A DNA stretch of 64,000 nucleotides, from NCBI GenBank assembly GCA_963813245.1, contig CAWEYE010000005.1, positions 114,588-178,587 of the forward strand. The letters run 5' to 3'. This document shows, piece by piece, positions 3,468 through 48,296 of the stretch (position 1 is its first letter; each line of letters opens with the position of its first letter). The translations under genes were made by a program, and so were the position numbers. Below the pieces are notes generated by a model, which ran no database searches, had not been told where the DNA came from, and saw only the letters and a program-made list of their open reading frames with translations. The DNA is from an uncultured Actinomycetes bacterium. GTDB lineage: Bacteria > Actinomycetota > Thermoleophilia > Gaiellales > JAICJC01.

Positions 3468-4427
3468 CCGACCGGGACTTCCGCCAGCGCGAGCGCGGCC
3501 CGCAGCGCCGCGAGCGAGGTCTCGATGCCCTCCTCGGCCCTCATGCGCGGGTCCTCATGCTCGATCGAGATATCGCCGTCATACCCGGCAGCGCGCAGCG
3601 CGGCGAGGAGCGCGGCCCAGGTGGCGGTGTCGTGGCCGGTGCCGACGGCGGCGAAGTGCCACGTCTCCAGGTCGGGGTCGACCGGGAAGCGGCAGTCGAT
3701 CAGGCCGTTGCGGCGCACGCGGTCGGCGTGCACGAGCGTGTCCTTGCCGTGCGCGAAGCCGATGCGGTCGCCGACGTCCTCGATGACGCACAGCGGATCG
3801 ATCCCCTGCCACCAGAAGTGGCTGGGGTCGAAGTTCACACCCAGGTTCGGCCCGGCGTGCTCGGCCAGGCGCAGGAACGACGCGCTCGAGTACGCCGACG
3901 CGCCCGGGTGCAGCTCGAGGCAGATGCGCACGCCGGGCGCCGCGCCCGCAGCCCATCCGCACAGCTCGCGCCAGAACGGCGCCAGCCGCTGCTCGAGCTG
4001 CCATTCCCACAGCGACTCGTCGTCGGGCGTGAGCGCCCACGGGGCGAAGACCGGCGTCTCCCCGCCGTCGCGGCTGCCCGGGCATCCGCTCATCGTGACG
4101 ACGCGGTCGACCCCGAAGCGCATGGGCGAGCTCGATCGCGCCGTGCACGAGCGCCGCATGCCGGGCGCCGACGTCGGCCTGTGGATGCAGGGGATTGCCG
4201 GCCGCGTTCACGCACGAAAGCTGCAGGCCATGCTCGCGCAGCTCGCCCGCCAGCCGGTCGCGGGCGGCCGGCTCGCGCAGGAGCGCGTCCAGATCCAGCT
4301 GGTGGGAGGCCTGCGCCCAGCCGCCCACTCCCATCTCGATGCGGCCGATCCCGCGCTCCGCGCACCAGGCGAACGCCTGCTCGCGCGAATGCTGCGCCAG
4401 GCCGTCGTTGAACACACCTATCTGCAA
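3464..4427 (-). pseudogene. Sugar phosphate isomerase/epimerase (xylose-isomerase-like TIM barrel), broken by one apparent +1 insertion near 4121
   Basis: Track ORFs 3579..4547 (...LQIGVFNDGLAQHSREQAFAWCAERGIGRIEMG...ALVHGAIELAH) and 3464..4159 (RFGVDRVVTMSGCPG...NFDPSHFWWQG...ISIEHED) join seamlessly if base ~4121 is removed. Start taken at TTG 4427 with GGGGAG upstream. Confidence 0.8.
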
Positions 4428-7224: not shown

Positions 7225-7801
7225 GTGTTCGCCCCCGCCTACCCGATCGAGACCGAGCGGCTGCTGCTGCGCCCCTACCAAAAGGGCGACTTCGACGCGC
7301 TCCACGCGATCGAGTCGCGGGCCGACGTCAACCGCTATCTGTACTCGGAAGCGCGCGGCGGCGACGAGGTGCACGGCATCCTGCGCCGGAAGCTGGATGA
7401 GACCGGCCTGCGCGATGAGGGGGACACGCTTTCGGTGGCATGCGTGCGCAGGGACACGGGCGGCGATGATCGGCGGCTGCATTCTGCACTGGGCCAGCCG
7501 CGAGCACGGTCTGGGCGAGATCGGTTTCGTGCTCCACCCCGACCACCACGGCCACGGCTACGCGACCGAGGCCGCCCGCCCGCTGCTCGAGTTCGGCTTC
7601 GCCACCGTCGGCTTGCACCGGATCATCGGCCGGCTCGAGGCCAGAAACGTGGCATCGGCGCGCGTGCTCGAGAAGCTCGGCATGCGCCGCGAGGCGCTGC
7701 TCATCGAGAACGAGTGGGTCAAGGGCGAGTGGCAGAGCGAGCTCGACTACGCGATCCTCGACCGCGAGTGGCGGGCGCTGCGCGCGGTCGGCGGCGCTTG
7801 A
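7225..7801 (+). pseudogene. GNAT (RimJ/RimL-type) N-acetyltransferase, broken by one apparent +1 insertion near 7462
   Basis: N-terminal part IETERLLLRPYQKGDFDALHAIESRADVNRYLY...SVACVRRDTG is in the frame of ORF 7165. The continuation AMIGGCILHWASREHGLGEIGFVLHPDHHGHGYATEAARPLLEFGF...ARNVASARVLEKLGM is in the frame of ORF 6683..7801. Confidence 0.75.
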
Positions 7802-12060: not shown

Positions 12061-12196
12061 CGCACCGCGCAGTCGCCCGAACGGGGGTGGCGCGGGCACT
12101 GGGCCGCCGCTATCACGAGAGAGCGGCCACCGACTTCGCCCAGCACCCCCGCTGCGACGTTGGCGCTCCTTCACCCAACGTCCCCCAGGTGATCCC

Positions 12197-12814: not shown

Positions 12815-12879
12815 GCCCGCACGCCGACGCCTGCAAGCGACACTGAGAGTCGGCGCCGTCCCAGCCGATAACAGGGAGC

Positions 12880-14205: not shown

Positions 14206-14210
14206 CCCGG

Positions 14211-16190: not shown

Positions 16191-16219
16191 GACGACCAGC
16201 GCAACGACGGCGGCCAGGT

Positions 16220-17200
16220 CTATCCGCCCCTCGCCTTCGCGATCTCGGCCGTGATCGCCGGCACCACCTCGTGCAGGTCGCCGATCACGGCGTAGTCGGC
16301 GTTCGCGACGATCGGGGCGTCAGGGTCGGTGTTGATCGCGAGGATGCGCTTGGCGCCCTTGCAGCCGGCCATGTGCTGGGTGGCGCCGCTGACCCCGCAC
16401 GGGATGTAGATCTCGGGCGCGATCTTCGTGCCCGTCTGCCCGACCTGGTCGGTGTGCGGGCGCCAGCCGGCGATCGTGACCGCGCGCGAGCAGCCCACCG
16501 CACCGCCGAGCGCGGCCGCGAGCGCCTCGATGGCCGCGAAGCCCTCGGCCGAGCCGACCCCGCGGCCGCCCGTCACGACCGCCTTCGCATCGGCGAGCGA
16601 GACCCCGCCGCCGGTATCGGTCTGCGTCCGCTCGGACACGCGCGCGACGAGATCCGCGCCGTGCAGCGCGGGCGTGAACTCCGCGACCATGGTCTGCACC
16701 GGCGCGGCGGCGGGCTGCGCCTCGACCGCGTGCGGGGCGACCGTGAGCAGCTTGACCGCGCCGTGCAGGCGGGCCTGCTCGAGCAGGCTCCCGCCCCAGC
16801 GCAGGCGCGTCACGGTCGCCGGGTCGCCGGGGGCCGCATCGACGCAGTTTGCGGCCAGCGGCAGGTCGGTGATCGCGGCCGCGTGCGCCATCGCCTCGGT
16901 GGCACGCTCGCTGCCCGGGGCGATCACCGCCGCCGGGGCGAGCCGCCCGATCAGCTCCGCGACCGTCCTGCCCCACGCCTGGGGCGCATACGCCGCAAAG
17001 GCGTCGTGCACGGCGACGTGCGCCGCGTGAACGCCGAGCTCGCCGAGCCCGGCCGCCGCCGCTGCGGCATCGGCGCCGATCAGCACGGCCTCGACCGGGC
17101 CGCCGCCCGCCTCGGCATAGCCGCGGGCGAGCGTGAGCGCCTGGCGGGAGACGTCGTCCGGGCCGCCGCCCGCGTGTTCGACCAGGACGAGCACGCTCAC
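16220..17200 (-). CDS. etfA: Electron transfer flavoprotein alpha subunit
   Basis: VSVLVLVEHAGG...VVTGGRGVGSAEGF...GWRPHTDQVGQTGTKIAPEIYIPCGVSGATQHMAG. The GTG start at 17200 overlaps the etfB stop. Confidence 0.9.
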   Translation of the reverse strand: MSVLVLVEHAGGGPDDVSRQALTLARGYAEAGGGPVEAVLIGADAAAAAAGLGELGVHAAHVAVHDAFAAYAPQAWGRTVAELIGRLAPAAVIAPGSERATEAMAHAAAITDLPLAANCVDAAPGDPATVTRLRWGGSLLEQARLHGAVKLLTVAPHAVEAQPAAAPVQTMVAEFTPALHGADLVARVSERTQTDTGGGVSLADAKAVVTGGRGVGSAEGFAAIEALAAALGGAVGCSRAVTIAGWRPHTDQVGQTGTKIAPEIYIPCGVSGATQHMAGCKGAKRILAINTDPDAPIVANADYAVIGDLHEVVPAITAEIAKARGG

Positions 17201-17965
17201 AGGACGCCCGCCTGGCGCAGGATCTCGACCACCGCCGGCGCCGCCTCGGCCCCGTGGCCGAGGATCTGGGCCTGCTTGCCCTGGCCCTCCGGCACGACCA
17301 GCCGCACCTTCTCGACGCCGGCGCCGGCGCGAACAGGCGTGCGCGTCTCGAGCGGCTTGCGCTTGGCCCGCATGCGCCCCGGCACCGACGGGTAGCGGGG
17401 CAGGTTCAGCCCCTCCTTGACCGTCACGACGGCCGGCAGCGGCAGGGTGTAGACGTCGCGCCCGCCCGGCACCTCCTGCTCGCAGCGCACGCTGCCGTCG
17501 GCGACGGCGACGCCCTTGAGGCCGGTCGCGCAGGGCCGGCCGAGGGCGTGGGCGACGCGGATCCCGACCTGGTAGTTGCCGGCGTCGGCCGACTCGTTGC
17601 CGAAGAAGATCAGGTCGTACTCGGTGCCCGCCGCCCGCTCGGCCTCGATCGCCTCGAGGATCGCCCGGGCGGTCGCCTGGCCGTCGAACTCCTCGTCGGC
17701 CAGGAGCAGGATCGCCCGGTCGATGCCGAGCGCCATGCAGTCGCGCAGCTGCTCCTCGGCCTCGGCCGGCCCGAGCGTGAGCACGGTCGAGCTGCCGCCG
17801 TGCTGCTCGACCAGGCGCACGGCCTCCTCGACGCCGCACTCCTCGTGCGGGCTGATCGTGAAGCCCAGGTGACGGGTCTCGATCGCCTGCTCGTCGGCGG
17901 TCGAGCACGATGCGGCCGCCGGTCATCGGCACCCGCTTCACGCAGCAGAGGATGTTGAGCGGCAC
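17197..17965 (-). pseudogene. etfB: Electron transfer flavoprotein beta subunit, broken by one apparent +1 insertion at ~17902
   Basis: MPLNILCCVKRVPMTGGRIVL (frame of ORF 16220..17965) continues as TADEQAIETRHLGFTISPHEECGVEEAVRLVEQHGG... (frame of ORF 17197..17820) once one base is removed. Confidence 0.85.
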
Positions 17966-20486
17966 TAGCTGCGGATCCTGGTGTTCTCGGGGTCGAAGAC
18001 GGGGGTCGCATCGGCCACGGCCACCGTGACAGGGTATCGCTCGCCCAGGTACTCGACGAGGAGCCGCTCGCCCGCCACCGCCTGCTCGGGCGGGAGGTAG
18101 GCCATCAGGATGTGCTTCCCGATCGACGGCCCCGCGCCGGCGCTCGTGACGTAGGCGCCGCGGCCCTTGCGGTCGACGAGGCGGCTGCCGTCGCGACCCA
18201 GGATCGGCTCGCGGCCGAGCATGTAGCGCTTGACGCCGCTCTTCGACGTGTGGTCATCGACCGTGAGCGTGCACAGGATGGCGGCCGGGTCCTCGTCGCG
18301 CTGGCGCAGATGGGCGTCGCGGCCGACGAAGTCCTCGTCCTTCACCTTGCCCCACGCCATGCCGGCCTCGACGACGTTGTACTCGCTCTCGAGCTCGAAG
18401 CCGTAGGCGCGGTAGCACTTCTCCAGGCGCCCGGTGGTGCCGTAGACGCCGATGCCGACCGGGACGAGGCCGTGCGGGCGGCCCTCCTCGAAGACCATGT
18501 CCCACAGCCGCCGGCCCTCCTCGATCGGCACGTAGAGCTCCCAGCCGAGATCGCCGACATACGAGATCCGCGAGGCGAGCACGCGCAGCGTGTCCATCTC
18601 GATCGTGCGGCAGGTGCCGAAGCGGAAGCCCTCGTGGGAGACGTCGTCGCGGGTGAGCGCGGCAAGGATGTCGCGCGCCCGCGGCCCCCACAGGCCGAGC
18701 GTCGTCCAGCCCGACGTGATGTCGGTCAGCTGGGCGCTAGCCGTCCGCCGGCAGGCGGTCCGAGAACCACTTGCGGTCGGCCGGCCCGTGGGCGCCGCCG
18801 GTGACGACGCGGAAGAGCTCGTCGCCGAGGCGCATGATCGTGAGGTCGGCCTTGAACCCGCCGCCGGGCGAGAGCACCGGCGTGTAGACCACCCGGCCGA
18901 TGGCGACGTCCATCTGCCGCATCGCCACCGTCTGCACCGCCTGGAGCGCGCCGGGGCCGGCGATGTCGAAGATCGTGAACGCGCTCAGGTCGACCATGCC
19001 GGCCCGGTCGCGCATCGCCAGGTGCTCGGCGTTGATGATGGGCGACCACCAGCGCGCGTCCCACTCGGCCTCGCGGCGGTTGATGCGGTCGCCGTACTCC
19101 TCGACGAGCGGGGCGTTCGAGCCGTACCACTGCGGCCGCTCCCAGCCGGCGGCCTCGAAGAACTCGGCCTCGAGCTCGACCTGGCGGGAGTGGAACGGCG
19201 CCAGCCGCACGTTGCGGTTCGACGCCCACTGCTCGCCCGGGTGGACGATGCCGTAGGTCTTGTTGAAGCCCTCGGCCGCGCGCGCGCGCACGTGCGCACG
19301 CGTCTTCTGGTGCTCCCAGAAGCGGGCGACGTCGGAGGAGTGCAGGTCGATCTCGGACTCGCCGTGCACCATCCACTCGGCCACCGACTTGCCGACGCCG
19401 GGGCCCTCCTTGACCCACACCGCCGCCACCGACCACAGGTTCTTCACCTCGGGCGTCTCGCCCAGCACCGGCATGCCGTCGGGCGTGAGCGAGAGCAGGC
19501 CGTTGATCGCGTACTTCACGCCCACCGTCTCGTCGCCGACGATCTCGGGGCAGAGCTCGAGCGCGTGCTCCATCTGCTGCTCGAAGTCGGCCTGGGTGAA
19601 CGGGAACTCCGTCGGCGAGAGCGCCGCCTCCTCGACCGAGGGGATTTCCTCGGGATCGTGCAGGATCGGCCGGTGGGCGTAGGAGCCGATCTCGAGGCCG
19701 GCGCCGTCCTGGCGCTCGTACATGTTCGTGTCCATGTCGCGCACGATCGGGTACTCGATGTGCGACTTGGCGGTGGCGAAGCGCGGCACCGGGCCGACGT
19801 CGATCATCTGGTGGACGGCCGGCGTGAGCGGGATCGAGGCCCCCGCCATCCGCGGCCAGCTTGGGGCTCCACACGCCGCAGGCGATGATGACGATCTCGG
19901 CCTCGATGTCTCCGCGCGTCGTGCGCACCCGGCGGACGACGCCGTGCTCGACGTCGATGCCGAGCACCTCGGTGTTCGCCTGGATGGTGAGCGCGCCGGC
20001 CGCCTGCGCCCGCTCGCGCATGAGGGTGCCGGCCCGCAGCGAGTCGACCACGCCGACGCCCTCGGTGTGGAACCCGCCGACCAGGATGCTCTCGTCGAGG
20101 AAGGGCACCATCTGCTTGATCTGGGCCGGCGTCACGAGCGACACGCCCTCGACGCCCCACGAGAGCGCCGAGGACATGCGCCGGCGCAGCTCCTGCATCC
20201 GCTCCTCGGTGCGCGCGACCTCGATGCCGCCGCTCTGCGTGAACACGCCGAGCTCCTTGTACTGGCGCACGCTGTCGGCCGTGAGCGCGGTCATCTCCTT
20301 CGAGTGGTCGACCGGGAAGATGAAGTTGGACGCATGCCCGGTCGAGCCGCCGGGGTTCGGGAACGGGCCCTTGTCGATCAGCACCAGGTCGCTCCAGCCC
20401 TGCTCGTGGAGGTGGTAGGCGACGCTGTTGCCCACGATCCCGGCGCCGATCACCACGGCGCGGGCGCGTCCCGGTAGCGTGCTCAT
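17965..20486 (-). pseudogene. FAD-dependent dimethylglycine/sarcosine dehydrogenase family protein (DAO domain + GcvT aminomethyltransferase-like domain), two apparent +1 insertions (~19850, ~18739)
   Basis: Three pieces join cleanly. (1) MSTLPGRARAVVIGAGIVGNSVAYHL...IIACGVWSPKLAA. (2) MAGASIPLTPAVHQMIDVGP...RKWFSDRLPADG. (3) SAQLTDITSGWTTLGLWGP...ISYVGDLGWELY...PVFDPENTRIRS. GAGGAGGA lies upstream of ATG 20486. Confidence 0.85.
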
Positions 20487-21238: not shown

Positions 21239-22426
21239 ATGGACGCCCGGTTGCACGACTCGATGGCCGCGCATGTCGCCGCCGGGCACCTGCCGGGGCT
21301 CGATCACGCTCGTGGCCCGCGGCGACGAGGTGCACGTCGACGTGATCGGCACGCCGTCGTTCGCGACGACCGCCCCCCTCGAGCGCGGATGCCATCTTCC
21401 GGATCGCCTCGCTCACCAAGCCCATCACCGCCGTGGCCGCGATGGCGCTCGTCGAGGCGGGCGTCCTGCGGCTCGAGCAGCCGATCGAGGGGCTCGTCCC
21501 GGAGCTGGCCGGCCGGCGCGTCCTGCGCGCGATCGACGCCGACCTGGACGACACGGTGGCCGCCGAGCGGCCGATCACGCTCGAGGACCTGCTCAGCTTC
21601 CGGCTCGGCTTCGGATCGGTGATGGCGCCGCCCGGCAGCTTCCCGATCCAGCGGGCCGAGGCGGAGCTCGGCCTGCAGAGCATCGGCGGCCCGCCGTGGC
21701 CGCCGGTCGCCCACGATGCCGACAGCTGGATCGGCGCGCTCGGATCGCTGCCGCTCATGTACCAGCCGGGCGAGCGCTGGCTCTACAACACGTCGGCCCA
21801 GGTGCTCGGCGTGGTGCTCGCCCGGGCCTGCGGCCGCGATCTGGAGCCGGTGCTGCGCGAGCGCGTCTTCGCGCCGCTCGGGATGGCCGACACGGGCTTC
21901 ACCGTCCCCGCTGAGAGCCTGCCCCGGCTCACCACCGCCTACCGGCCCGATCCCGAGACCGGCGCGCTCACTGTGCTCGACGATCCCGCCGGACAGCTGG
22001 TGGAGCACGCCGCCCTCGTTCCCGGACGCGAGCGGGTGGCTCGTGTCGACCATCGACGACTACTGGGCGTTCGTCTCGCAGGTCTTCGCGCCCGGCTCCG
22101 GGCGGGGCGGGCGCGTGCTGGCGCCGGCGACGGTCGCGCTCATGACGGCCGACCGGCTGACGCCGGCGCAGCGCGATGCCTCGGCGCTCTTCCTGGGCGA
22201 GCATGGGAGCTGGGGCCTGGGCCTGGCGGTGCCCGCGACCGGCTCGGCCGGCGCGCCCTTCCCCTGCGGAGTCGGCTGGGACGGCGGCACCGGCACCGCG
22301 TGGCGCACCAACCCTCGCACCGGCGTGACCGGCATCCTGTTCACGCAGCGCGCGGCGACGTCACCGGTGCCCTCCGCGCTCGTGAACGACTTCTGGGCCG
22401 GCGTGAACGCGGCCGCCACCGCCTGA
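21239..22426 (+). pseudogene. Serine hydrolase / beta-lactamase family protein, three apparent +1 insertions (~21299, ~21387, ~21997)
   Basis: Frames 2->0->1->2. MDARLHDSMAAHVAAGHLPG | SITLVARGDEVHVDVIGTPSFATTAPLER | DAIFRIASLTKPITAVAAMALVEAG (SxxK motif)...LDDPAGQ | WWSTPPSFPDASGWLVSTIDDYWAF...WDGGTGTAW. Confidence 0.8.
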
Positions 22427-36283: not shown

Positions 36284-37342
36284 ATGGAGATCGGCGTCTA
36301 CACCTTCGCCGAGCTCGCGCCGGACCCCGACACCGGGCGCACGATGTCGGCCGAGCGGCGACTGCGCGAGCTGATCGAGGAGGCCGAGCTGGCCGAGCAG
36401 GCGGGCCTCGAGGTGTTCGGCGTGGGCGAGCACCATCGCGCCGACTTCGCCGTCTCGGCTCCCGCCGTCGCCCTCGCCGCCGTCGGCGAGCACACGGAGC
36501 GCATCCGCCTCACGAGCGCCGTGAGCGTGCTCAGCTCGGATGACCCGGTACGGGTGTTCCAGGCGTTTGCCACGCTCGACCTGCTCACGGGCGGCCGCGC
36601 CGAGATCATGGCGGGCCGGGGGTCGTTCATCGAGTCGTTCCCCCTGTTCGGCTACGACCTGGACGACTACGACGAGCTGTTCGCCGAGAAGCTCGACCTG
36701 CTGCTCGCGCTGCGCGCCTCCGAGCGGGTGACCTGGTCGGGACGACACCGGCCGCCGCTTGACGACCTCGGCGTCTACCCGCGCCCGCTGCAGGATCCGC
36801 TGCCGATCTGGATCGCCGTCGGCGGCACGCCGCAGTCGGTCGTGCGGGCGGGCACGCTCGGGCTGCCGCTCGCCGTCGCCATCATCGGCGGCGCGCCGGC
36901 CCGGTTCGGGCCGCTCGTCGATCTCTACCGCGAGGCCGCCCGCCTGGCCGGGCACGACCGGGCCTCGCTGCCGGTCAGCATCAACTCGCACACCTACGTG
37001 GCCGAGACCTCGCAGCGGGCGGCCGCCGAGTTCTACCCCGGCTACGCCGCCATGATGACGCGGATCGGGCGCGAGCGCGGCTGGCCGGCGATGACACGGG
37101 AGCAGTTCGACGCCCTGCGCGCGCCCGATGGGGCGCTCCTGGTCGGCAGCCCCCAGGAGGTGGTCGAGAAGATCCTGCAGGAGCACGAGATCTTCGGCCA
37201 CGACCGCTTTCTCGCCCAGATGAGCGTCGGCACGATGCCGCACCGAGAGGTGATGCGCGCGCTCGAGCTGCTCGGCGGCGAGGTCGCCCCGGCGGTGCGG
37301 GCGCAGCTCGCCCGGGCAGCGCCGGCTCGGCCCGCGCCGTAG
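36284..37342 (+). CDS. LLM-class (luciferase-like) flavin-dependent oxidoreductase
   Basis: [15 protein letters not shown]...[20 protein letters not shown]...[18 protein letters not shown]...[11 protein letters not shown]. Start taken at ATG 36284 inside track ORF 35849..37342. Confidence 0.88.
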
Positions 37343-37384
37343 CGGCGCCTTCACTCCCCGGCGGCCCGGCCGATCTTCCGGGAT

Positions 37385-37407
37385 ATCGGTTGCACACGTG
37401 AACCGAT
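37385..37407. promoter_or_regulatory. Inverted repeat ATCGGTT-N9-AACCGAT (CACGTG in the spacer) 10-32 nt upstream of the MshEN-GT2 start
   Basis: 7-bp arms read directly, in an AT-richer patch (gatgcaaatcctATG). Function inferred only. Confidence 0.3.
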
Positions 37408-37416
37408 GCAAATCCT

Positions 37417-39428
37417 ATGGATCGTCCCGGAAGCACGCCAACGCCGAAGCGCCGTCTCAGCGACGGGTACGTGCCGCTGCACGCGCTGCCAGCGGCCGCC
37501 CCGGCCCCACTGCGCGAGCAGCTCGGAGCCGCGCTCGTCGACCGCGGTCTGCTGAGTGCGGACCAGCTCGAGTGGGCCCTCGACGCCCATCGGCGCACCG
37601 GTGAGCGGCTCGGCCGGGTGCTGCTCGCGGCCGGCCTCGTCCGCCGCCAGACGCTCTACTCGGTGCTGGCGGAGCTGTGGGGCTGCGGCTTCGTCGACCT
37701 CGTGCACACGCCCCCCGACGCGGCCGTGGCCGGGCTGTTCGACCCCGAGCAGATGGCGCTCGAGGGCTGGATCCCGCTCGAGCTGCGCGGTGGTGTGCTG
37801 CACGTCGCCACCTCGGAGCCGCCCTCGCCTGACCTGCGCCGGCGCATCCTTCACGCGTGCCCACCCCGCGACGCGAACGACATCGTCGCGATCACCTTCG
37901 CCGCCACCACGGACTGGGATGTGCTGGCCGCGATCCGGGCCCGGTTCGCGCACGAGCTCCGGCACGAGGCGGCGTACGGGCTCTCGGAGCGGGATCCGGC
38001 TCGATCGGCGCGGGGAGGCCTCAGCCGCGGGCAGCGGGTCGTGCTCGGCCTGGCCCTCGCCGGTCTGGTCGCGGCCGGCATCTTCGACCCCGGCGCGCTC
38101 CTGATCGGCGCGATCGTCGTCCTGCAGACAACCTTCGTCGCGGGGGTGCTGTTCAAGCTGGTCGCGTCGCTGGCCGGCATCCGCAGCACGCGCCGGCGCG
38201 GCCGGCGGGCTCCGGCGCAGCGCATCCCCGACCACGAGCTGCCGGTCTACACGGTGCTCGTGCCCGTCTACCACGAGGCCAATATCGTCGGCGGGCTGAT
38301 CGAGCACCTGCGCCGGCTCGACTATCCCGCCGGAGAAGCTCGAGATCCTGCTGCTCATGGAGGAGGACGACACCGAGACCATCGCGGCCGCGCGGGCGGC
38401 CGACCGCCCGGACACCGTGCGCTTCATCGTCGTCCCCGACGGCGCAGCCGAAGACCAAGCCGCGCGCCTGCAACGTCGGCCTGTTCTTCGCCCGCGGCGA
38501 GTACCTCGTGATCTACGACGCCGAGGACCGCCCCGAGCCCGGCCAGCTGCGCGAGGCCGTGGCGGCCTTCCGGGCCGGCGCCGACGACCTCGTGTGCGTG
38601 CAGGCGCGCCTCAACTACTTCAACGCCCGCCGAGAACGTGCTCACCCGGATGTTCACGCTCGAGTACTCGTACTGGTTCGACTACATGCTGCCCGGGCCT
38701 CGACCGGCTGTCGCTGCCGATCCCGCTCGGCGGCACCTCCAACCACTTCCGCGCCGACCGGCTGCGCGAGCTCGGCGGGTGGGACCCGTTCAACGTGACC
38801 GAGGACGCCGACCTCGGCCTGCGCGCCGGCGGCGAAGGGCTACACGGTCGGCATCATCGACTCGACGACCTACGAGGAGGCCTGCTCGCAGATCGGCGCC
38901 GTGGATCCGCCAGCGCACCCGCTGGATCAAGGGCTACATGCAGACCGCGCTCGTGCACTCGCGCCGGCCCGTGAAGTTCACCCGCGAGGCCGGGCTGCGC
39001 GGCCTGGCCGGCTTCCTGCTCCTGATCGCGGGCACGCCCGCCACGTTCCTGGCGACGCCCATCCTGTGGCTGCTCACCGCCGTGTGGATCTCCGGCGCCG
39101 CCTCGGGCGGCGGCCGTGTCACACCTCTTCCCGCATCCGTTCGACACGCTCGCCGAGCTCAGCCTCGTCGTCGGCAACCTGAGCATGATCGGCCTGAACG
39201 CGCTCGCCGTCCTGCGGCGGCGGATGTTCCATCTGCTGCCGTTCGCGCTGCTCGCCCCGCTCTACTGGGTGCTGCACTCGATCGCCGCCTGGCGAGCGCT
39301 CGAGCAGCTCATCCGGCGGCCCGTTCATGTGGGAGAAGACGCCGCACGGCCTGCAGGGCTCGCAGCCGGCCCCGGCGGCCGTGGACACGATCGAGACGGA
39401 GGCGCCGCCCCTGAGGGCAGCCGCCTAA
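37417..39428 (+). pseudogene. MshEN (GspE-N type c-di-GMP receptor) domain fused to TM segments and a GT2 family glycosyltransferase; catalytic half carries eight apparent +1 insertions
   Basis: The N-terminal 305 aa are intact (frame 1). The GT2 half is then read through frames 2,0,1,2,0,1,2,0: LDYPA|EKLEILLLMEEDDTE...VVPDG|QPKTKPRACNVGLFFARGEYLVIYDAEDRPE...NYFNAR|ENVLTRMFTLEYSYWFDYMLPG|LDRLSLPIPLGGTSNHFR...EDADLGLRA|AAKGYTVGIIDSTTYEEACSQIGA|WIRQRTRWIKGYMQT...|VSHLFPHPFD...LIRRP|FMWEKTPHGLQ... Confidence 0.8.
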
Positions 39429-40828
39429 GCCGCCAGCGCCAGCGTGGCGACGTGGGCATTGAGCGCCGCGAACGGCTCGGCGAAGAAGGCGGTGCCGACG
39501 TCGCCGCGCATCAGGTCGAGCGCGGCCGGCGACGGCATGGGATCGCGGTAGGGCCGCCGCGCGGTGAGCGCGTCGTAGACGTCGGCGCAGGCGAGCACAC
39601 GGCTGATCGCGGGGATCGCCTCGCCGGCCAGGCCGCGGTGGTAGCCGCGCCCGTCGACCCGCTCGTGGTGGGCGCCCGCGGCCTCGGCGAGGCCCGAGAA
39701 GATCGGCACGTGGCGCAGGATCGCCTCGGTGTCGCGCGGATGGCGCTTCACGGCCGCGTACTCGGCGTCGGTCAGCTTCCCGGGCTTGTCCAGGATCGAG
39801 TTGGAGACGCCGAGCTTGCCGATGTCGTGCAGGAGCCCCGCGCGGCGCAGGTCGCGCAGCTCGCCCTCGCCCCAGCCGAGCGCGCGGCCGATGCCGACGG
39901 CGTAGGCCGAGACCCGGTCGGAGTGGCTGGCGGTGAAGGGGCTCTTGGCGTCGATCATCGAGGCGAAGGCCTTGGCGATCCGGTCGACGCGGGCATCGTC
40001 CGCGGCCACGAGGCCGCCGTCGGCGGGCGCGGCGGCGAAGCGCTCGCCGGCGAGGTCGGCGAAGAGCCGGTCGGAGTCGGGCAGCGCGAGGAACGCGTCG
40101 GCGACCTGCGGGTCAAACCAGCGGCCGCGGCGCACGCGCACCATCTCCCGGGCGGTCTCGACGCCGTCCTGGGCGATGAAGACGTCGGCCGTCTGCGCCA
40201 GGCAGGCGATGCGGGCGAGCAGCGGGATGCCATTGCCGCGCAGCTTGTAGGGCTGGCCGCGCCCGTCCCAGTGCTCGTCGAGGTATCTGACGGTGTCGGC
40301 GGCGGCGGCGGGGAACTCGAGCATCGTGACGATGCGGGCGCCGCGATCGCAGCGCGTCTCGACCGCCAGGTTGCCCTCGCGGGCCATGTCGCGCAGGGCG
40401 GTCAGCACCCGCCGGGCGCGCGCGAGGCTCGAGTCGTTGCGGCCGGCCTCGCGCACGACCATGCCGATCGCCGCACTCGGCCTGGCCCAGTCGATGCGCT
40501 TCGCGATCCGCTTCAGCTCGAGGTCGTCGGCGGCGAAGATCTCGGCCATCCGCGCGGCCGACGAGGAGCAACCGGCGTCCTTGAGCAGCATGGCGTAATA
40601 GAGGCTTGTGTGCTCCTCGGCGGTGAGCGTGAGCGCGTCGGCCAGGCGCAGCGCGATCAGGCAGCTGCGCTTGGCGTGCCCCGGGGGCTGGCCCTCGGTC
40701 AGGTCGAGGGCGTGCGAGAGCGCCGCGACGACCTCGCCCACGGCGAAGGTCTGCGGCGCCGGCTCGGGCGCGGAGCGGAGGTGGGCGGTCATCTCGACGG
40801 TTATCGGCCCCCGCCGGCGCCCGTACAC
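39425..40828 (-). CDS. Cytoplasmic tandem HD-GYP protein: degenerate first domain + near-canonical second domain
   Basis: Domain 1: GHAKRS...LLKDAGC...DEHWDGRGQPYKL (HD->KD, GYP->GQP). Domain 2: SHSDRVS...LLHDIGKLGV...HHERVDGRGYHRGL. The start could instead be ATG 40792. Confidence 0.85.
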   Translation of the reverse strand: MYGRRRGPITVEMTAHLRSAPEPAPQTFAVGEVVAALSHALDLTEGQPPGHAKRSCLIALRLADALTLTAEEHTSLYYAMLLKDAGCSSSAARMAEIFAADDLELKRIAKRIDWARPSAAIGMVVREAGRNDSSLARARRVLTALRDMAREGNLAVETRCDRGARIVTMLEFPAAAADTVRYLDEHWDGRGQPYKLRGNGIPLLARIACLAQTADVFIAQDGVETAREMVRVRRGRWFDPQVADAFLALPDSDRLFADLAGERFAAAPADGGLVAADDARVDRIAKAFASMIDAKSPFTASHSDRVSAYAVGIGRALGWGEGELRDLRRAGLLHDIGKLGVSNSILDKPGKLTDAEYAAVKRHPRDTEAILRHVPIFSGLAEAAGAHHERVDGRGYHRGLAGEAIPAISRVLACADVYDALTARRPYRDPMPSPAALDLMRGDVGTAFFAEPFAALNAHVATLALAA

Positions 40829-40848
40829 CCCGGCTGGAGGGATCTACG

Positions 40849-41646
40849 ATGGGCGGCATGGCGAAGGCGATCGGCATCCTGCACCCGGGCGCGATGGGTG
40901 CCGCCGTCGGCGCGGCCCTGCGCACCGCGGGGCACGACGTCGTCTGGGCCGCAGACGGGCGCAGCGACGCGACCGCGGAGCGGGCCGCGGCCGCCGGGCT
41001 GCGTGACATCGGCACGGCCGCCGAGATGACCGGGGCGTGCGCCGTCGTCGTGTCGGTCTGCCCGCCGCACGCCGCGCTCGCCGTCGCCCGCGAGACGGCC
41101 GGCTTCCGCGGCACCTACGTCGACGCGAACGCCGTCTCGCCCGCGACCGCCCGGGCGATCGGCGCGGTCGTGACCGCGGGCGGGGCGCGCTTCGTCGACG
41201 GAGGCATCATCGGCCCGCCGCCCCATGCCGCGGGGACGACGCGGCTGTACCTGGCCGGTGCCGATGCCGCGGCGATCGCCGCCGCCTTCGCCGGCACGGC
41301 GCTCGACGCGCGGGTCGTCTCCGCGCGGCCCGGCGACGCCTCGGCCGTGAAGATGGCCTACGCCGCGTGGACGAAGGGCTCGGCCGCGCTCCTGCTCGCC
41401 GCCCGGGCCGTCGCGCGGGCGGAGGGCGTCGAGGACGTGCTCCTACAGGAGTGGGCGCTCTCCCTGCCGGAGCTCGAGTCCGAGTACGCGCGCGCCGGCC
41501 GGTCGGCGGCGGCAAAGGGCTGGCGGTGGGTCGGCGAGATGGAGGAGATCGCCGCGACGTTTGCGGCCGCCGGAGAGCCCGACGGCTTCCATCTGGCGGC
41601 GGCGGAGGTCTTCCGCCGCCGGGGGGTCACGGACTCCAGGCCGTGA
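40849..41646 (+). CDS. NAD(P)-binding 6-phosphogluconate-dehydrogenase-like oxidoreductase (DUF1932-type C-terminus)
   Basis: IGILHPGAMGAAVGAAL Rossmann motif and GGAGGG upstream of ATG 40849. 265 aa. Confidence 0.7.
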   Translation: MGGMAKAIGILHPGAMGAAVGAALRTAGHDVVWAADGRSDATAERAAAAGLRDIGTAAEMTGACAVVVSVCPPHAALAVARETAGFRGTYVDANAVSPATARAIGAVVTAGGARFVDGGIIGPPPHAAGTTRLYLAGADAAAIAAAFAGTALDARVVSARPGDASAVKMAYAAWTKGSAALLLAARAVARAEGVEDVLLQEWALSLPELESEYARAGRSAAAKGWRWVGEMEEIAATFAAAGEPDGFHLAAAEVFRRRGVTDSRP

Positions 41647-42835
41647 CCGCGGCGCCTTCCGTGAAGATCATCCCGCCTGCGATCGCCGGCTGGCCGGCGG
41701 TGGCCACGCTGCTCGCGAAGAGCACCTGGCCCGTGCGAGCGTCGAGCGCCTCCAGCGTATCGGAGTCGACGCCGTAGACGACTCCGCCCGCCACCGCGGC
41801 CGGCGAGAACTGATCGCCCTGGGCCCGCGGATCGCGCCAGAGCACACGGCCCGTGGCCGCCGAAAGGGCGCAGAAGCAGGGCCCTTCCTGGAAGCCGACG
41901 AACACCCGCCCGCGCGTCACGGTCGGGGTCGTGAAGAGGCCGCCGGGCTGCGCCGGGAACGCGTGCGACCACAGCCGCTGCCCGGCCGGCGTGAAGGCCG
42001 TGACGGCTCCGACCCCGCCCACGTAGACCACCCCGCCGCTGACCGACGGCGACTGGAAGACGCCGCCCGCAGGGTTGCGCGACCAGCGCAGGTGGCCGGT
42101 GGCCGCATCGAAGGCGACGAGCCGGCCCGGCTGCGTCTGCGGCACGGAGCCGAAGTCGCCCGATGTGGCGGCGTAGGCCACGCCCCCGGCGACGGCCGGC
42201 GAGAGCGCTCCGCCGGCGGTGGCGATGGTGCGGTGCCAGAGCGGGGCGCCGCCGCCCGCCGTGAACGCGTACTCGGCTCCCGGCTGGGCCTGGCCGGGAG
42301 CGCCCGTGGCCACGAACACGCGGCCGCCGGCGACGGTGGGCGCGTCGACCCACCCCGAAGCGTCTGTGTGCCTGCTCCACAGGCGCTGGCCGGTCGCCGC
42401 CGAGAGCGCCACGAGGTCGTCGACCGGCGCCCCCACGCCGACGTAGACGACGCCGCCGGCGACGGCCGGCGTCGAGAGCCCGGAGCCGGCATGCAGCGTG
42501 ACCGTCCACCGGTGCGCGCCGGTGGCCGCGGCGAGGGCGTAGAGCACGCCTCCGGGCGAGCCGGCGAACACGGTGGCGCCTGCCACGATGGGCGACGGCT
42601 CGGGTCCCGCGCCGTCCGACCCCAGGCTGACAGGCACCGACCAGACGGCGTGCAGATGCCCGACCGCCGATCGCGCGGGCGCCGCCGAGGCCGCAGCCGC
42701 GCCGGCGTGCGCCGCCGAGCCGCCGTACTGACCCCAGCCGGGCACGGGCGCCCCCGCCGCCTGCCCGGCTCCCAGCACGGCCGCCGCGCACACCGCCGCG
42801 GCCAGGGTTGCAACAATCGGCACCCGTCTGCCCAC
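41627..42835 (-). CDS. Secreted PQQ-like beta-propeller repeat protein
   Basis: Signal peptide MGRRVPIVATLAAAVCAAAVLGAGQAAGA. Repeated xGGVVYVG...LxAxxAATGxxxW blades (at least 7 repeats by eye). Confidence 0.75.
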   Translation of the reverse strand: MGRRVPIVATLAAAVCAAAVLGAGQAAGAPVPGWGQYGGSAAHAGAAAASAAPARSAVGHLHAVWSVPVSLGSDGAGPEPSPIVAGATVFAGSPGGVLYALAAATGAHRWTVTLHAGSGLSTPAVAGGVVYVGVGAPVDDLVALSAATGQRLWSRHTDASGWVDAPTVAGGRVFVATGAPGQAQPGAEYAFTAGGGAPLWHRTIATAGGALSPAVAGGVAYAATSGDFGSVPQTQPGRLVAFDAATGHLRWSRNPAGGVFQSPSVSGGVVYVGGVGAVTAFTPAGQRLWSHAFPAQPGGLFTTPTVTRGRVFVGFQEGPCFCALSAATGRVLWRDPRAQGDQFSPAAVAGGVVYGVDSDTLEALDARTGQVLFASSVATAGQPAIAGGMIFTEGAAVTAWSP

Positions 42836-42860
42836 GGCGCGGATCGTACCCCGGGTCGGC

Positions 42861-43932
42861 CTACCCGTTTGGGTGGGTTTTGGCCGCCCGCACGAGCTCG
42901 TCGCCGACCTCGCCGGTGCCGGCCGTGCCGCCCAGATCGGGGGTGCGCACGGCGCCCGCGCCGAGCACGCCTTCGAGCGCCGCCATCACCCGGGCCGCCG
43001 CCGCACCCTCGCCGAGGTGGTCGAGCATCATCGCGCCGGCCCACACGGCGCCCACCGGGTTTGCCAGCGAGCGGCCGGCGATGTCGGGTGCCGACCCGTG
43101 CACCGGCTCGAACAGGCCCGGGCCCGTGCCGGCGGGCGAGACGTTCGCGCTCGCGGCGAGGCCCATCCCGCCCTGGATGGCGGCGCCGATGTCGGTGATG
43201 ACGTCGCCGAACAGGTTCGAGGCGACCATGACGTCGAACCGCTGCGGCTGGGTGACCATGTAGGCGCAGGCGGCGTCGACCAGGATCCGGTCGAGCTCGA
43301 CGTCGGCGAAGTCCGCGTGCACGGCGCCCACGATCTCGTCCCACATGACGAAGTGGTGCGGGCTCGCGTTCGACTTCGTGATGCTCGCGAGCTTGCCGCG
43401 CCGCGACCGGGCGAGCGCGAACGCGTGGCGGACGACGCGCTCGACCCCGACGCGGGTGAAGACGTCCACCTGCAGGCCGACCTCGTGGCCCATGCCGACG
43501 TGCACGCGCCCGCCGAGCGCCGGCGTACTCGCCCTCGGTGTTCTCGCGCACGCACACCATGTCGATGTCGGCGGCGGAGCGGCCGGCGAGCGGCGTGGCC
43601 ACGCCGGGCAGGAGCCGGATCGGGCGGATGTTCAGGTAGAGGTCGAAGCGCTGCCGGATCGGCAGCAGCAGGCCCCACAGGGTGACGTGGTCGGGCACGC
43701 CGGGCGAGCCGACCGCGCCGAGGTAGACGGCGTCGTGCTGCTCCAGCCGGCGCAGTCCGTCGGCCGGCATCATCGCGCCGGTGCGGGCATGGTGGTCGCT
43801 GCCCCAGGGCAGGTGCTCCCACTCGAGCCGGCACTCCTCGCCGCAGGCCGCATCGAGCACCCGGATGCCCTGCTCGATCACCTCCGGCCCGACGCCGTCG
43901 CCGCCGATCACGGCGATCCGGTGCCGCCTCAC
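42861..43932 (-). pseudogene. Isocitrate/isopropylmalate dehydrogenase family (tartrate dehydrogenase-like), one apparent +1 insertion at ~43518
   Basis: RIAVIGGDGVGPEV...MVCVRENTEGEYAG | LGGRVHVGMGHEVGLQVDVFTR...SNLFGDVITDIGAAIQGGMGLAASAN. The two pieces are in adjacent frames. GTG 43932 or the upstream 43968 could be the start. Confidence 0.8.
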
Positions 43933-43942
43933 CGCGCCACCG

Positions 43943-44771
43943 TCAGCCGCCCTTGATCGCGCCGGCAACCAGACCCCGCATGAAGAAGCGCTGGCCGAAG
44001 ATGTAGAGCGCGAAGATCGGCAGGGTCGCGATCGAGAGGCCGGCCATCACCACGGGGATGTTGAGGTTGTAGCGGTTCTGGAACCCGGTCAGCCCGGCCA
44101 TCAGCGTGAGCGAGTTCTCGCTCTGCAGGAAGACGAGGGCGATCAGAAGCTCGTTCCACACCCACAGCGCGTTCACGACCGCGAGCGTGATCAGCGGCGC
44201 GCCGGAGAGCGGCACGACCACGCGCAGGAACACCTGCAGCGACGAGGCGCCGTCGATCTCGGCGGCCTCGATCAGCGACCGCGGGATCGTGCGGAAGTAG
44301 GCCGCGAGCATGTACACCGAGAACGGCATCATCAGGCCGACGTAGATCGCGATCACGATCCGGCGGGTGTCGATCAGGTTGAGCTCGGCGCCGAGCAGGA
44401 AGAGCGGCACGACCAGCACCACCGGCGGGATCACCATCAGCGAGATGATCAGCGAGAGCATCACCTCACGGCCCACGAACTGCCAGCGCGAGAGCCCCCA
44501 GGCGGCCAGCGACGCGAACACGAGCGTGATCACGACCGACGCGATGGTCAGGATCAGGCTGTTCAGGAGCCACTGCGGGAAGTGGTTGTTGAGCGCCGTG
44601 TGGTAGGCGTTCAGGCGCGGCGACGGTGGGCAGGCCCAGGGGATGGTTCAGGAAGTCGCTCTGCGTGCGCAGCGACCCCGAGAGCATCACGTACACCGGC
44701 AGGAGCGCCGAGACCGTGAACGCGATCAGCACGAGCTGGCGCAGGAGCCGGCCGCCGCGCTCGACGATCAT
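43943..44771 (-). pseudogene. Carbohydrate ABC transporter permease (MalG-like), one apparent +1 insertion at ~44621
   Basis: MIVERGGRLLRQLVLIAFTVSALLPVYVMLSGSLRTQSDFLNHPLGLPTV | PRLNAYHTALNNHFPQWLLNS...EAAEIDGASSLQVFLRVVVPLS (EAA loop). Confidence 0.82.
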
Positions 44772-45692
44772 GCCGGCCTCCGGCGCGAGTAGCCGAAGCG
44801 GACGACCAGGAAGGCCGCGGCGACCGCGGTCACGCCGATCAGGAGCAGGGTCGCGGCAGCCGCCGCGAGCCAGCGGGATGTCCGACGTGAACGCGTTCTG
44901 GTAGATGTAGGTCTCGGTCACCTGGGTGGCCTGGCCGGGGCCGCCGCCGGTCATCACGAACACGTAGCTGAACACCCACGACATGAGCGTGATCGCCTCG
45001 ATCACGAGGTAGAAGCCGATGATCGAGCGCATCATCGGCAGCGTCACGTGCCAGTGGGTGCGAAACCAGCCGGCGCCGTCGACGCGCGCGGCGTCGAAGA
45101 CGTTCTGCGGCAGCGACAGCAGCCGGGCCAGGAAGAGGATCACGCCGAAGCCGAGCTCGCGCCAGATGATCACGCCCGCGAGCGAGCGCAGCGCCCAGTC
45201 GGGGTTGCCCAGCCAGTCCTGCACCAGGAAGTTCAGGTGCAGCGTCTGCAGCGTCGTGTTGAGCGCCCCGTGCAGCGTCAGGAGCTCGCCGAAGAGCACG
45301 CCGACGACGGTCACCGGCAGCATGTAGGGGATGAACACCGCCACGCGGTGGAAGCGCCATCCGCGCATGCCCTCGTACAGCAGGATCGCCATGAGGAGCG
45401 CGATCCCGATGATGATCGGGAGCGTCAGGAGCAGGCGCAGGTTGTTGCCGAGCGCCTGGCGGAAGAACGGGTCGTCGATCGCGATCCGCAGGTTGCCGAG
45501 GCCGACCGGCTCGCCGTCGCGGTGGGTCGCCTCGATCACGAGGCGGTAGATGCTGTAGCCGTAGACGACGCCGATCGCAGCGAGCGCGGGCGCGATCCAC
45601 AGGAACGCCTGCCACGGAGGGCGGCGGGAGCGGCCGCGTACGGCCGCCCCCGTGCCCCGGTCGCCCGGTGACGCTACTGCTGTCCCGTCCAC
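44768..45692 (-). pseudogene. Carbohydrate ABC transporter permease (MalF-like), one apparent +1 insertion at ~44870
   Basis: ...WQAFLWIAPALAAIGVVYGYSIYRL...FDAARVDGAGWFRTHWHVTLPMM...TETYIYQNAFTSDIPL | LAAAAATLLLIGVTAVAAAFLVVRFGYSRRRPA. The stop overlaps the next ATG (ATGA). The GTG 45692 start is tentative. Confidence 0.78.
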
Positions 45693-47038
45693 TTCTTGAA
45701 GTTGTGCGATCAGGTCGGGCTCGATCGTCCTGATCCGGGCCATGTCGGACTCCATCGTGGCGGCCGCCTGGGCGGCGGTCGTCTTGCCGGCGAACATCAG
45801 CTGCACGCCGCCGAAGTTGGCCTTCGAGTCGAGGTCGGTGGGGATGAAGTTCTCCAGGTAGGGAGCGCCGTTCTGCGAGTAGTCGTACAGCTGCTTCACC
45901 TGCGGCACGTCGATCTGCGAAGAGTCGAAGCGGTCGTCGGCCGGCAGCGCGCCCGTGTCCTTGTAGAACAGCGCCAGCTCCGCCGGCGTGTGCATGAACA
46001 TGATGAAGTCGGCCGACTGCTGCTTGTACGGCGACCACGAGCTGATCGCAAGCGTCTGCGACGTCGAGCCCAGCTTGCCGGCGCCGACGCCGTTTGCGTA
46101 CTTGGGCATCGTCATGACGCCGACCTTGCTCGCCGCCGACCTGGGTGACGAACTTGCGCACGTCGGTGCCGGCCGTGACCGTCATCGCGCTCTTGCCGTC
46201 GACCCAGGTCTGCTGGGCCTGGTACAGGTCGAGCGAGCCGATGTCGTCGTTCCAGCACTTGGCGCTGATCATCTGCCCGAGGCGCGTCCACCACTCGGCC
46301 AGGTCGGGGTCGGTGAACTTCTTCGTCCCGACGACGGCCTGCTTCAGCTCGTCGACCGAGGTCAGCGACTCCGAGCCGAGGATCGAGAAGAGCCATCCGC
46401 CGAACCAGCCGTCCTTGACGCCGCCGGCGATCGGGGTGATGCCCTTCGACCGCAGCGTCGAGCAGTCCGACAGGAGCTGGCTCCAGGTGGTGGGCGCCGA
46501 GGCGATGCCGGCCCGGGCGAGGACGTCCTTGCGGTACAGGATCGGGAACGACGGCTGCACGTACCACGGGGCGCTCCAGAGCTTGCCGTCCCAGGTGTCC
46601 TCGGACGCGTTCAGGTAGTGCGCACGCTCGGCCGCCGGGATGTAGTCGGAGATCGGCGCGAGGTTCCCGTCCCACGCGTCCTGGAGCGCCCAGATGCCGC
46701 CCCAGCGGTACTCGATGTCCGGCCCCTTCTTGGCCTTCGCCGCCGCGGCGAAGTTGGGCATCAGGTTGTCGGTCGACTGCAGCACGGTGTTGATCTTGAT
46801 GTTGGGGTGCAGCGGCCTCGTACTTGCTCACCGAGGTGGCGAGGAACGTGGACAGGCCGTGCGCCTCCTGGTTGCCCCAGTACCACATGGTCAGGGTGAC
46901 CGGGCCGCTCGGCGCGGCCGAGCTGCCGCCTCCGGAGCTGCCGCCGCTGCTGCTGCTGCCGCAGGCCGCTGCGGCGAGCACGATCATGGTGGCGGCCGCA
47001 AACCGCCGCCGGCTGCTTGTGAGGAGCCTGCTGGACAT
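45674..47038 (-). pseudogene. ABC transporter extracellular solute-binding protein (sugar type), three apparent +1 insertions (~46810, ~46128, ~45704)
   Basis: MSSRLLTSSRRRFAAATMIVLAAAACGSSSSGG (lipobox)...SVSKYEAA | HPNIKINTVLQSTDNLMPNF...TAGTDVRKFVTQVGGE | KVGVMTMPKYANGVGAG...IRTIEPDLIA | NFKKWTGQQ-stop. GGGAGGG lies upstream of the ATG. Confidence 0.8.
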
Positions 47039-47065
47039 GAACCCTCCCTGGGACGCTGGGAAGGA

Positions 47066-47097
47066 AGTAAACGCTATAGCATTCCCGGCGTCAAGAG
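47066..47097 (-). promoter_or_regulatory. Promoter/operator element copy A: (minus strand) TCTTGACG-N9-GCTATAGC-g-TTTACT
   Basis: TTGACG and TTTACT are separated by 17 nt, with the perfect palindrome GCTATAGC in the spacer. It lies ~21 nt upstream of the SBP start, in the divergent region shared with the ATPase gene. Confidence 0.5.
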
Positions 47098-47133
47098 CGC
47101 CCGGGGGCGCATGTGCGATGAGGAGTCTCTGAC

Positions 47134-48292
47134 GTGGCCGGAATCGACCTTCTCAACCTCACGAAGGTGTACGCCAACGGGGTGCGGGCCGTCGACGCGA
47201 TCGACCTCGAGATCCGCGACGGCGAGTTCATGGTGCTCGTCGGCCCGTCCGGCTGCGGCAAGTCGACGCTCCTGCGGATGATCGCCGGGCTCGAGGAGGT
47301 GTCGGAGGGCACGGTGCGGATCGACGACCGCGACGTGACCGCGCTCGCACCGCGGGCGCGCGACATCGCGATGGTGTTCCAGGACTACGCGCTCTACCCG
47401 CACATGACGGTGCGCCAGAACCTGGCGTTCGGGCTCAAGCTGCGCCGGGTGAACCGGCGCGAGATCGAGCAGCGCGTGCAGGCGGTGGCGACGACGCTCG
47501 GCCTGCAGGACTACCTCGCGCGGCGGCCGGCGGCGCTCTCGGGCGGGCAGCGCCAGCGGGTCGCGATCGGCCGCGCGATGGTGCGCGAGCCGAAGGCGTT
47601 CCTGATGGACGAGCCGCTCTCGAACCTCGACGCCAAGCTGCGGGTGACGATGCGGGCCGAGCTCGCCCGGCTGCACGAGCGCCTGGCGGTGACGACGGTC
47701 TACGTCACCCACGACCAGACCGAGGCGATGACGCTCGGGCAGCGGGTCGCCGTGATCCGCGACGGCACGGTGCAGCAGTGCGACACGCCGCAGGAGCTGT
47801 TCGACCGGCCGAACAACCTGTTCGTGGCGGCGTTCATCGGGTCGCCGGCGATGAACCTCGTGGCGGCGACGGTCGACGACACGACGATCCGCTTCGCCGA
47901 CATCGCCCTGCCGCTGGCCGAGGGGGCGGCCGTGCGCGGGCCAGAAACGCGACGTGATCCTCGGGATCCGGCCGACCGACTTCGAGCTCCCCGACCGCGC
48001 CGCCGACCCGGGGCTGCCGCGGATCCGGGTCGCGCCCGAGGTGATCGAGGGCCTCGGGGCCGAGACCAACGTGATCTTCCCGCTGGCGGCGCCGCGGGTC
48101 GACAGCGACACGGTGCGGTCGGCGGCCGAGGGCGGCGACGTGGGCACGCTGCTCGCCGATGACGACCGCGCGCTCTTCACCGCCCGCATCGCCACCCGCA
48201 CGCCGCTCGCCCAGAACGGGCCGATCGAGCTCGTGGTGCACAACGCGAGCCTGCACTTCTTCGACCCGGACACCGGCGCAGCGCTGCGCTGA
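47134..48292 (+). pseudogene. Sugar ABC transporter ATP-binding protein (MalK-like), one apparent +1 insertion at ~47944
   Basis: [34 protein letters not shown]...[14 protein letters not shown] | [15 protein letters not shown]...LHFFDPDTGAAL. GTG start. Confidence 0.85.
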
Positions 48293-48296
48293 ATAC

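Follow-up and report, generated by a model that had tools for sequence, protein, structure and literature searches.

The glycosyltransferase gene and its eight frame breaks

The window (the whole 64-kb stretch of DNA analysed here, with a G+C content of 72.8%) contains a gene for a protein that combines an MshEN domain, a membrane segment and a GT2 glycosyltransferase domain, and that converges with an HD-GYP gene transcribed from the opposite strand (Table 1). The conserved protein can be read between its start codon (ATG, 37417) and its stop codon (TAA, 39426–39428) only by passing through the frames 1, 2, 0, 1, 2, 0, 1, 2 and 0 (modulo 3), and a three-frame translation along this path takes eight +1 steps without a stop codon or a lost residue. 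A frame plot that is independent of homology (GC3-based, with Viterbi decoding) switches at 38324, 38440, 38624, 38691, 38835, 38905 and 39105; the eighth switch is not seen because it is masked by the convergent gene. Nucleotide alignments to three related contigs (L001, L002 and L086; see below) place one extra window base at each of eight positions. This is the path that a sequence-only reading of the same DNA had traced, with one extra base at each of eight junctions, and every aligned position lies within 5 nt of the coordinate given there. The same reading had described the first part of the gene and the HD-GYP gene as clean, which the alignments bear out: there is no 1-bp indel relative to L001 in 36680–38328, and the segment 39324–43296 has a single one, at 40853, together with one in-frame 6-bp repeat difference. 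Neither the first 912 nt, which encode the N-terminal part, nor the HD-GYP gene thus has a frame-breaking indel relative to L001, and both are clean in this sense. Two further candidates, at 39076 and 39125, were rejected as window insertions; they are a compensated −2/−1 pair in L001, which departs at this point from the family consensus seen in the window and in the other homologues.

The eight insertions form a 1-kb cluster that is statistically real. When 22 insertions are placed at random in 64 kb, eight within 1 kb were obtained in 0 of 200,000 placements, so uniform random error is rejected, and the local rate is about 25 times the window average.

Table 1. Genes and one-base insertions in the window, in order of position (inserted bases in square brackets)
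Feature	Position	Strand	Evidence
+1 break, xylose-isomerase-like TIM-barrel gene (sugar-phosphate isomerase)	4100..4140 (about 4122, +/-20 nt)	-	frame plot; AP_endonuc_2 25-315 across junction
+1 break, GNAT acetyltransferase gene	7450..7485 (about 7466, +/-20 nt)	+	frame plot; Acetyltransf_3 14-155 across junction
+1 break (second), DAO/GCV_T oxidase gene	18720..18750 (about 18733)	-	GCV_T cut at profile position 125/255; protein resumes in next frame
+1 break (first), DAO/GCV_T oxidase gene	19830..19865 (about 19848)	-	frame plot; DAO 10-370 across junction
Two +1 breaks 80 nt apart, beta-lactamase-family gene	21290..21400 (about 21303, 21383)	+	Beta-lactamase 9-248 across both junctions
MshEN, transmembrane and GT2 glycosyltransferase gene	37417..39428	+	frame broken eight times as given; stitched product about 666-667 aa
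Undisturbed 5′ part of the GT2 gene (MshEN domain and membrane segment)	37417..38328	+	no indel relative to L001; single frame in frame plot
Extra base 1, G in TATCCC[G]CCGGAG	38329	+	absent from L001, L002, L086; Pro codon CCC in L001, CCG in L002
Extra base 2, G in GACGGC[G]CAGCCG	38444	+	L001 CAG, L002 GAG, window GCAG
Extra base 3, G in CGCC[G]AGAAC	38632	+	alignments to L001, L002, L086
Extra base 4, one C of CTGCC[C]GGGC	38692..38694 (aligned at 38694)	+	alignments to L001, L002, L086
Extra base 5, C in GCGC[C]GGCGGCG	38827	+	codon GCG in L001, GCC in L002 by eye; no match scored in formal allele test
Extra base 6, G in ATCG[G]CGCCG	38896	+	alignments to L001, L002, L086
Extra base 7, C in GGCGG[C]GGCCG	39111	+	family consensus ...SHLFPHPFD legible only past the shift
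Extra base 8, G in GGCCC[G]TTCATG	39323	+	Pro codon CCC in L001, CCG in L002 and L086
Convergent HD-GYP gene, undisturbed	39425..40792	-	ORF; no indel relative to L001; 3′ end overlaps GT2 gene by 4 nt
Extra G, not frame-breaking, just upstream of or at 5′ end of DUF1932 gene	40853	+	L001 alignment
Extra base, Iso_dh (isopropylmalate/tartrate dehydrogenase-like) gene frameshifted	43516	-	absent from L002, L083, L084, L085, L086; Iso_dh domain spans junction
Extra base, ABC permease 2	44624..44626	-	alignments to relatives
Extra base, ABC permease 1	44873..44874	-	window CC[GC], L083 CCG, L084 CCC
Extra base close to 3′ end of solute-binding protein gene	45704..45706	-	alignments to relatives
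Extra base, solute-binding protein gene	46128..46129	-	protein reading and alignments to L083, L084
Extra base, 5′ part of solute-binding protein gene	46813..46815	-	alignments to relatives
Extra base, MalK-like ATPase gene	47937..47938	+	window GGCC[CG]CGC (alignment orientation), L083 G, L084 C; OB_MalK spans junction

The protein stitched together across the eight junctions has Pfam matches to MshEN at residues 88–181 (36.5 bits, cut-off 23.1), to Glyco_tranf_2_3 at 278–504 (85.5 bits, cut-off 27) and to Glyco_trans_2_3 at 363–555 (88.5 bits), with the GT2 domain as a whole extending from 278 to 555. It is co-linear with the intact 666-aa protein P0001 encoded by L001 (93–94% identity, 100% query coverage) and with eight other homologues. 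The catalytic motifs DAED, TED and QRTRW are invariant columns in the alignment of the stitched protein with these nine homologues; the residues corresponding to the D,DxD, TED and Q(R)xRW signatures are D367–D370, T460–D462 and Q497–W501. The domain order, length and invariant motifs match those of at least 120 listed homologues; among the matches listed by a separate scan of genome contigs with the stitched protein, the best is 61% identical. The predicted product is an ordinary member of a widespread MshEN-GT2 family. The JGI labels for these homologues are either 'glycosyltransferase XagB' or those of cellulose or poly-beta-1,6-GlcNAc synthase-like proteins. The product is probably a c-di-GMP-responsive polysaccharide synthase whose gene adjoins an HD-GYP gene, with both the binding of c-di-GMP and the making of a polysaccharide predicted only from what the domains are called and from this neighbour.

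Insertions elsewhere in the window and in related contigs

Several related contigs provide points of reference. The closest of these over the GT2 gene is L001, a 6.6-kb metagenome contig with 97.1% nucleotide identity to positions 36680–43296 of the window and the same gene order (luciferase-like, GT2, convergent HD-GYP, DUF1932 and PQQ genes); its HD-GYP gene product has HD_5/HD Pfam matches, and the convergent HD-GYP gene is also kept in L002. Comparison with relatives had been proposed as a check in the sequence-only reading, and it is informative here in that this close sister encodes the intact protein and lacks all eight extra bases. L002 is more distant (79% nucleotide identity) and has an intact 653-aa GT2 gene. 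L086 (90% nucleotide identity), which was found by a protein search with the N-terminal half (two matches), has its own private 1–2-bp deletions within the GT2 gene. To the right of the GT2 gene the references are L083 and L084, both JGI contigs with about 86% identity in which all five genes of the 42.9–48.3 kb region are intact, and L085, which is 93–97% identical to the window across 40135–60998 and whose gene calls are likewise fragmented.

We searched for further breaks by checking whether a stop codon lies at each same-strand switch of the frame plot and by following the protein sequences through these boundaries. Outside the GT2 gene there are at least 14 more +1 insertions, 13 of which frameshift eleven other genes (Table 1). 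Two genes (those for the DAO/GCV_T oxidase and the beta-lactamase-like protein) are hit twice and the solute-binding protein gene three times, and all four parts of one ABC transporter (both permeases, the solute-binding protein and the MalK-like ATPase) carry the lesion. For six stitched proteins a single Pfam domain spans each junction tested. In the 42.9–48.3 kb region the window carries an extra base at each site relative to both L083 and L084. In total the window has 22 single-base insertions and not one uncompensated single-base deletion (sign test, p = 5e-7). The sequence-only reading held that the neighbours are spared and the problem confined to 1 kb, but this is true of the immediate flanks only, and because the same +1 lesion is found in other genes we regard the GT2 gene as the place where a patchy error process that affects the whole contig is densest.

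The related long contigs have comparable lesions at other places. A four-way alignment of the window, L083, L084 and L085 over 5.4 kb has six private 1-bp insertions and no private 1-bp deletion in the window, 14 private insertions and three private deletions in L085, and neither in L083 or L084. There is no overlap between the private indel sites of the window and those of L085 in this alignment, and none of the window lesions is common to L001, L085 or L086. The lesions are thus private to each long contig; they are neither inherited nor tied to a fixed motif.

L002, L085 and L086 are long contigs with contig_N names from ENA metagenome assemblies, the form of name that Flye gives. The window itself is part of a 371,999-bp contig in NCBI and ENA, to which seven of ten window proteins were assigned by exact matches in the protein collection. 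As these ENA contigs are the nearest long relatives, the window is likely to derive from a long-read metagenome assembly as well. One large soil catalogue in ENA that uses contig_N names was produced from Nanopore reads with Flye and one round of Medaka (PMC12313526), and long-read metagenome assemblies are known to suffer from frameshifts caused by indels, the more so with soil Nanopore data (PMC13087279).

Nature and origin of the extra bases

Most of the extra bases do not lengthen a homopolymer. At least 11 of the 16 insertions for which there is a reference either differ from both neighbouring bases or split a run (e.g. CCC[G]CC, GGC[G]CAG, GG[C]GG and CCC[G]TTC), and homopolymer miscalling is rejected as the main cause. 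In many instances the extra base and its neighbour together correspond to the two alleles present in the relatives, as at 47937, 44873, 38444 (window [GC]AG) and 39323 (window CC[CG]). We scored an insertion as matching if the inserted base is present in at least one relative at either flanking column, and took random positions in the same alignments as the null. Five of the eight insertions in the GT2 gene match (null expectation 0.145, p = 0.002), as do four of six elsewhere in the window (0.141, p = 0.005) and seven of 14 in L085 (0.153, p = 0.002), giving a combined 16 of 28 with an expectation of 0.15 (p = 3e-7). These matches suggest that both alleles of a strain polymorphism have been written into one consensus. 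The doublets do not correspond to the natural SNP spectrum, since the inserted base is G or C in 26 of 28 cases whereas C<->G changes account for only about 42% of the differences between the window and L001. Either transitions rarely yield doublets, therefore, or an insertion error biased towards G and C also acts, and the latter may be an additional contributor. Two other features were considered and dropped: the codon position of the insertions as a sign of SNP sites, as the value of 11 of 15 is uninformative when an insertion in either of two among a codon's three slots is next to position 3, and a shared CpG or methylation-type motif, CpG being too common at 73% GC.

We conclude that the eight frame breaks are very probably technical, single-base insertion errors in an error-prone assembly consensus and reflect neither a pseudogene nor recoding. 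This verdict comes from comparison only. As the window has the same insertion errors at 14 or more other places, the organism itself most probably carries an intact gene, under selection, for a 666-aa MshEN-GT2 membrane glycosyltransferase. Of the two explanations offered in the sequence-only reading, an assembly-quality problem is therefore upheld, in a form that is contig-wide and patchy and not very local, and a biological cause, by recent inactivation or template-specific polymerase error, is not.

If the strain had itself acquired the eight insertions in the catalytic half, and the gene were a genuine and very recent pseudogene, then the tight grouping of the breaks in one functional half with clean flanks would have a ready explanation. 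The substitutions can also be read in this way in part. The GT2 insertion cluster overlaps a patch with 2–4 times more window-private substitutions: the segment 38329–38900, which has six of the eight insertions, has 12 of them when polarised with L001, L086 and L002 (2.1%, compared with 0.5–0.9% in the flanks), and nine of the 12 are at codon positions 1 or 2, as relaxed selection would give. Five residues of the stitched protein (R330, V338, V339, E379 and P456) are unique among the ten sequences, differing from all nine homologues. However, the overall codon-position spectrum is the same in the two halves, with differences from L001 at positions 3, 1 and 2 numbering 19, 9 and 5 in the intact half and again 19, 9 and 5 in the broken half when read in the corrected frame. 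Because four other private states (L362, E450, D480 and W494–I495) recur in distant functional homologues, we tentatively take 38329–38900 to be a tract of naturally higher divergence, which may include some substitution errors, and not a product of neutral decay. There are eight insertions with no deletion and no stop codon, every catalytic motif is retained, and the same lesion is in eleven other genes within 64 kb, including the complete ABC transporter. The argument in the sequence-only reading that natural decay would mix types of lesion is sound, and the ratio of 22 insertions to no deletions strengthens it. A pseudogene is thus very unlikely; the tests for one fail because the lesions are of a single type, the motifs survive and the sisters do not have the lesions, with L085 and L086 bearing private sets of their own.

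Recoding, either by programmed +1 ribosomal frameshifts or by correction at the transcript level at eight sites, would account for a product that is whole and conserved once every extra base is passed over. No slippery sequence or in-frame stop is common to the eight sites, the extra bases are in no homologue even at 97% identity, and genes of either strand that are unrelated to this one have the same lesion. Programmed +1 frameshifting fails its tests for want of a motif and of conservation, and the lack of conservation effectively refutes recoding. It is also very improbable that the extra bases are genuine and come from a mutational process that places the alternative allele beside the resident one at polymorphic sites; a candidate would be faulty heteroduplex repair after recombination between co-existing strains, which would leave clustered +1 insertions along the recombination tracts.

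Within the artefact reading, the explanation that we somewhat favour is that of a collapsed-strain consensus. Reads of two or more closely related, co-occurring strains would have been collapsed into one sequence, and at some single-base differences between the strains both alleles would have been written side by side, for a net change of +1. The catalytic half of the GT2 gene would be one such polymorphic patch. Errors would be patchy under this model, since neither strain-level polymorphism nor the ratio of strain coverages is uniform along a genome, and the model accounts for two local correspondences: the raised private divergence in the GT2 patch, and the identity between the window and L085 of 92.9% in the error-dense 40–48 kb region compared with 96.8%, both contigs being most error-ridden there. 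Directly observed are the presence of the insertions, their restriction to this contig, their single direction and their excess of alternative alleles from the relatives; we infer the strain mixture, the exact consensus step that would create the doublets and the local cause of the 1-kb density, as well as the sequencing technology.

An artefact with no mixing of strains is a possible but rather unlikely alternative, in which insertion-biased read errors were left at random places in stretches of low coverage or failed polishing. It would fit the window's 1-base indels, which are all insertions and are patchy, and the 26 G or C bases among the 28 insertions at 73% GC; residual indels in such assemblies are linked to low coverage (PMC12313526; PMC13087279). 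Moreover, 12 of the 28 insertions have no matching allele in the few relatives compared. Randomly placed errors leave unexplained the 16 of 28 that do match where 15% are expected (p = 3e-7), and also the coincidence of error-dense patches with higher divergence between strains in two independent contigs. The collapsed-strain consensus offers an explanation for both.

Relation to known systems

The value of these observations is practical and without biological significance. If the contig were annotated as given, a dozen genes would be wrongly labelled pseudogenes, among them that for a probable c-di-GMP-regulated polysaccharide synthase and those for an entire sugar ABC transporter. The error signature is one in which insertions are the only lesion, are mostly outside homopolymers and are patchy, and in which the inserted base is the allele of a sister strain; such errors could be flagged or corrected by comparative data alone when reads are absent.

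The stitched protein has the domain order, length and motifs of the MshEN-GT2 family, whereas the window gene as written has no single open reading frame. Programmed +1 ribosomal frameshifting, as in prfB, takes place at a single conserved position marked by a defined motif, which homologues retain. In both cases the product is restored by a shift of +1, but here there are eight sites, without a motif and present in no homologue. Genuine pseudogenes, such as those of Mycobacterium leprae, have a mixture of deletions, insertions, stop codons and relaxed substitution, and are usually common to sister strains. Multiple frameshifts are a point of likeness, but the mixed decay and the sharing with sisters are not seen here.

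The nearest parallel is with the indel frameshifts, or false pseudogenes, of long-read genome and metagenome assemblies that are measured by IDEEL-type protein-length tests. These are usually described as errors in homopolymer length, and deletions are common among them. The lesions described here differ in that all 22 are insertions, mostly outside homopolymers, and that the base is often the alternative allele of a neighbouring polymorphic site. In other respects the two are alike: conserved genes are split, with many instances in one contig, the lesions are absent from independent assemblies of close relatives, and related long contigs are hit at other sites.

Private indels in related contigs

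The error-rich stretch of L085, a related long contig from an ENA metagenome assembly, matches the position of the window's own error-rich stretch. Within 5.4 kb it carries fourteen 1-bp insertions, two 2-bp insertions and three 1-bp deletions that are private to it, and these break up its solute-binding protein (SBP), permease and Iso_dh genes. When the window and L085 are taken together, 26 of the 28 private inserted bases are G or C. At 45640–45720 in the window, the frame break at 45706 masks the SBP stop codon, and the SBP frame as written enters the first permease gene directly, without an intervening stop. The GT2 gene of a second such contig, L086, is broken up by private 1–2-bp deletions at window 38325, 38410 and 38976. 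L086 also lacks the entire HD-GYP gene, with nothing corresponding to window 39471–40841; either its gene content truly differs here or its assembly is collapsed.

Segments of the two related metagenome contigs with private indels
Contig	Source	Position	Feature
L085	ENA ERZ25039558 contig_133532	12592–18010	Corresponds to window 42886–48293
L086	ENA ERZ25039457 contig_26331	10001–11845	Fragmented GT2 gene

Substitutions and length variants

Five residues of the stitched GT2 product (read with the eight extra bases skipped) are unique to the window, all of them within the frameshifted patch. One is the Arg encoded by CGC at 38404–38406, which may be a C/G substitution error; each of the nine aligned homologues carries Pro (ADPPD) at this position. 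Between 36680 and 39440, C<->G transversions account for 17 of the 28 window-private substitutions, compared with 7 of 24 that are private to the 97% sister contig, L001. Together with the bases inserted in the window and L085, this amounts to a surplus of C/G confusion.

L001 has a compensated -2/-1 frameshift pair at 2391–2437 (window 39076–39125) that swaps 16 residues (RRVDLRRRLGRGRVT); the window and seven other homologues have TAVW..G..SH. Either the pair is a genuine compensated change in a membrane loop, or the L001 assembly is in error here. The in-frame 6-bp difference from L001 in the DUF1932 gene (window 41258; GGTGCC, one copy against two) is an ordinary tandem-repeat length variant.

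The GT2 and HD-GYP gene pair

The window (37417–40792), L001 (738–4102) and L002, a 79% relative (10001–13324), share one arrangement of the MshEN-GT2 gene with a convergent HD-GYP gene. The two 3′ ends have a 4-nt overlap in L001 and in the window, and they abut in L002. The retention of this arrangement suggests that in this Gaiellales-like lineage the pair forms a conserved polysaccharide module under c-di-GMP control.
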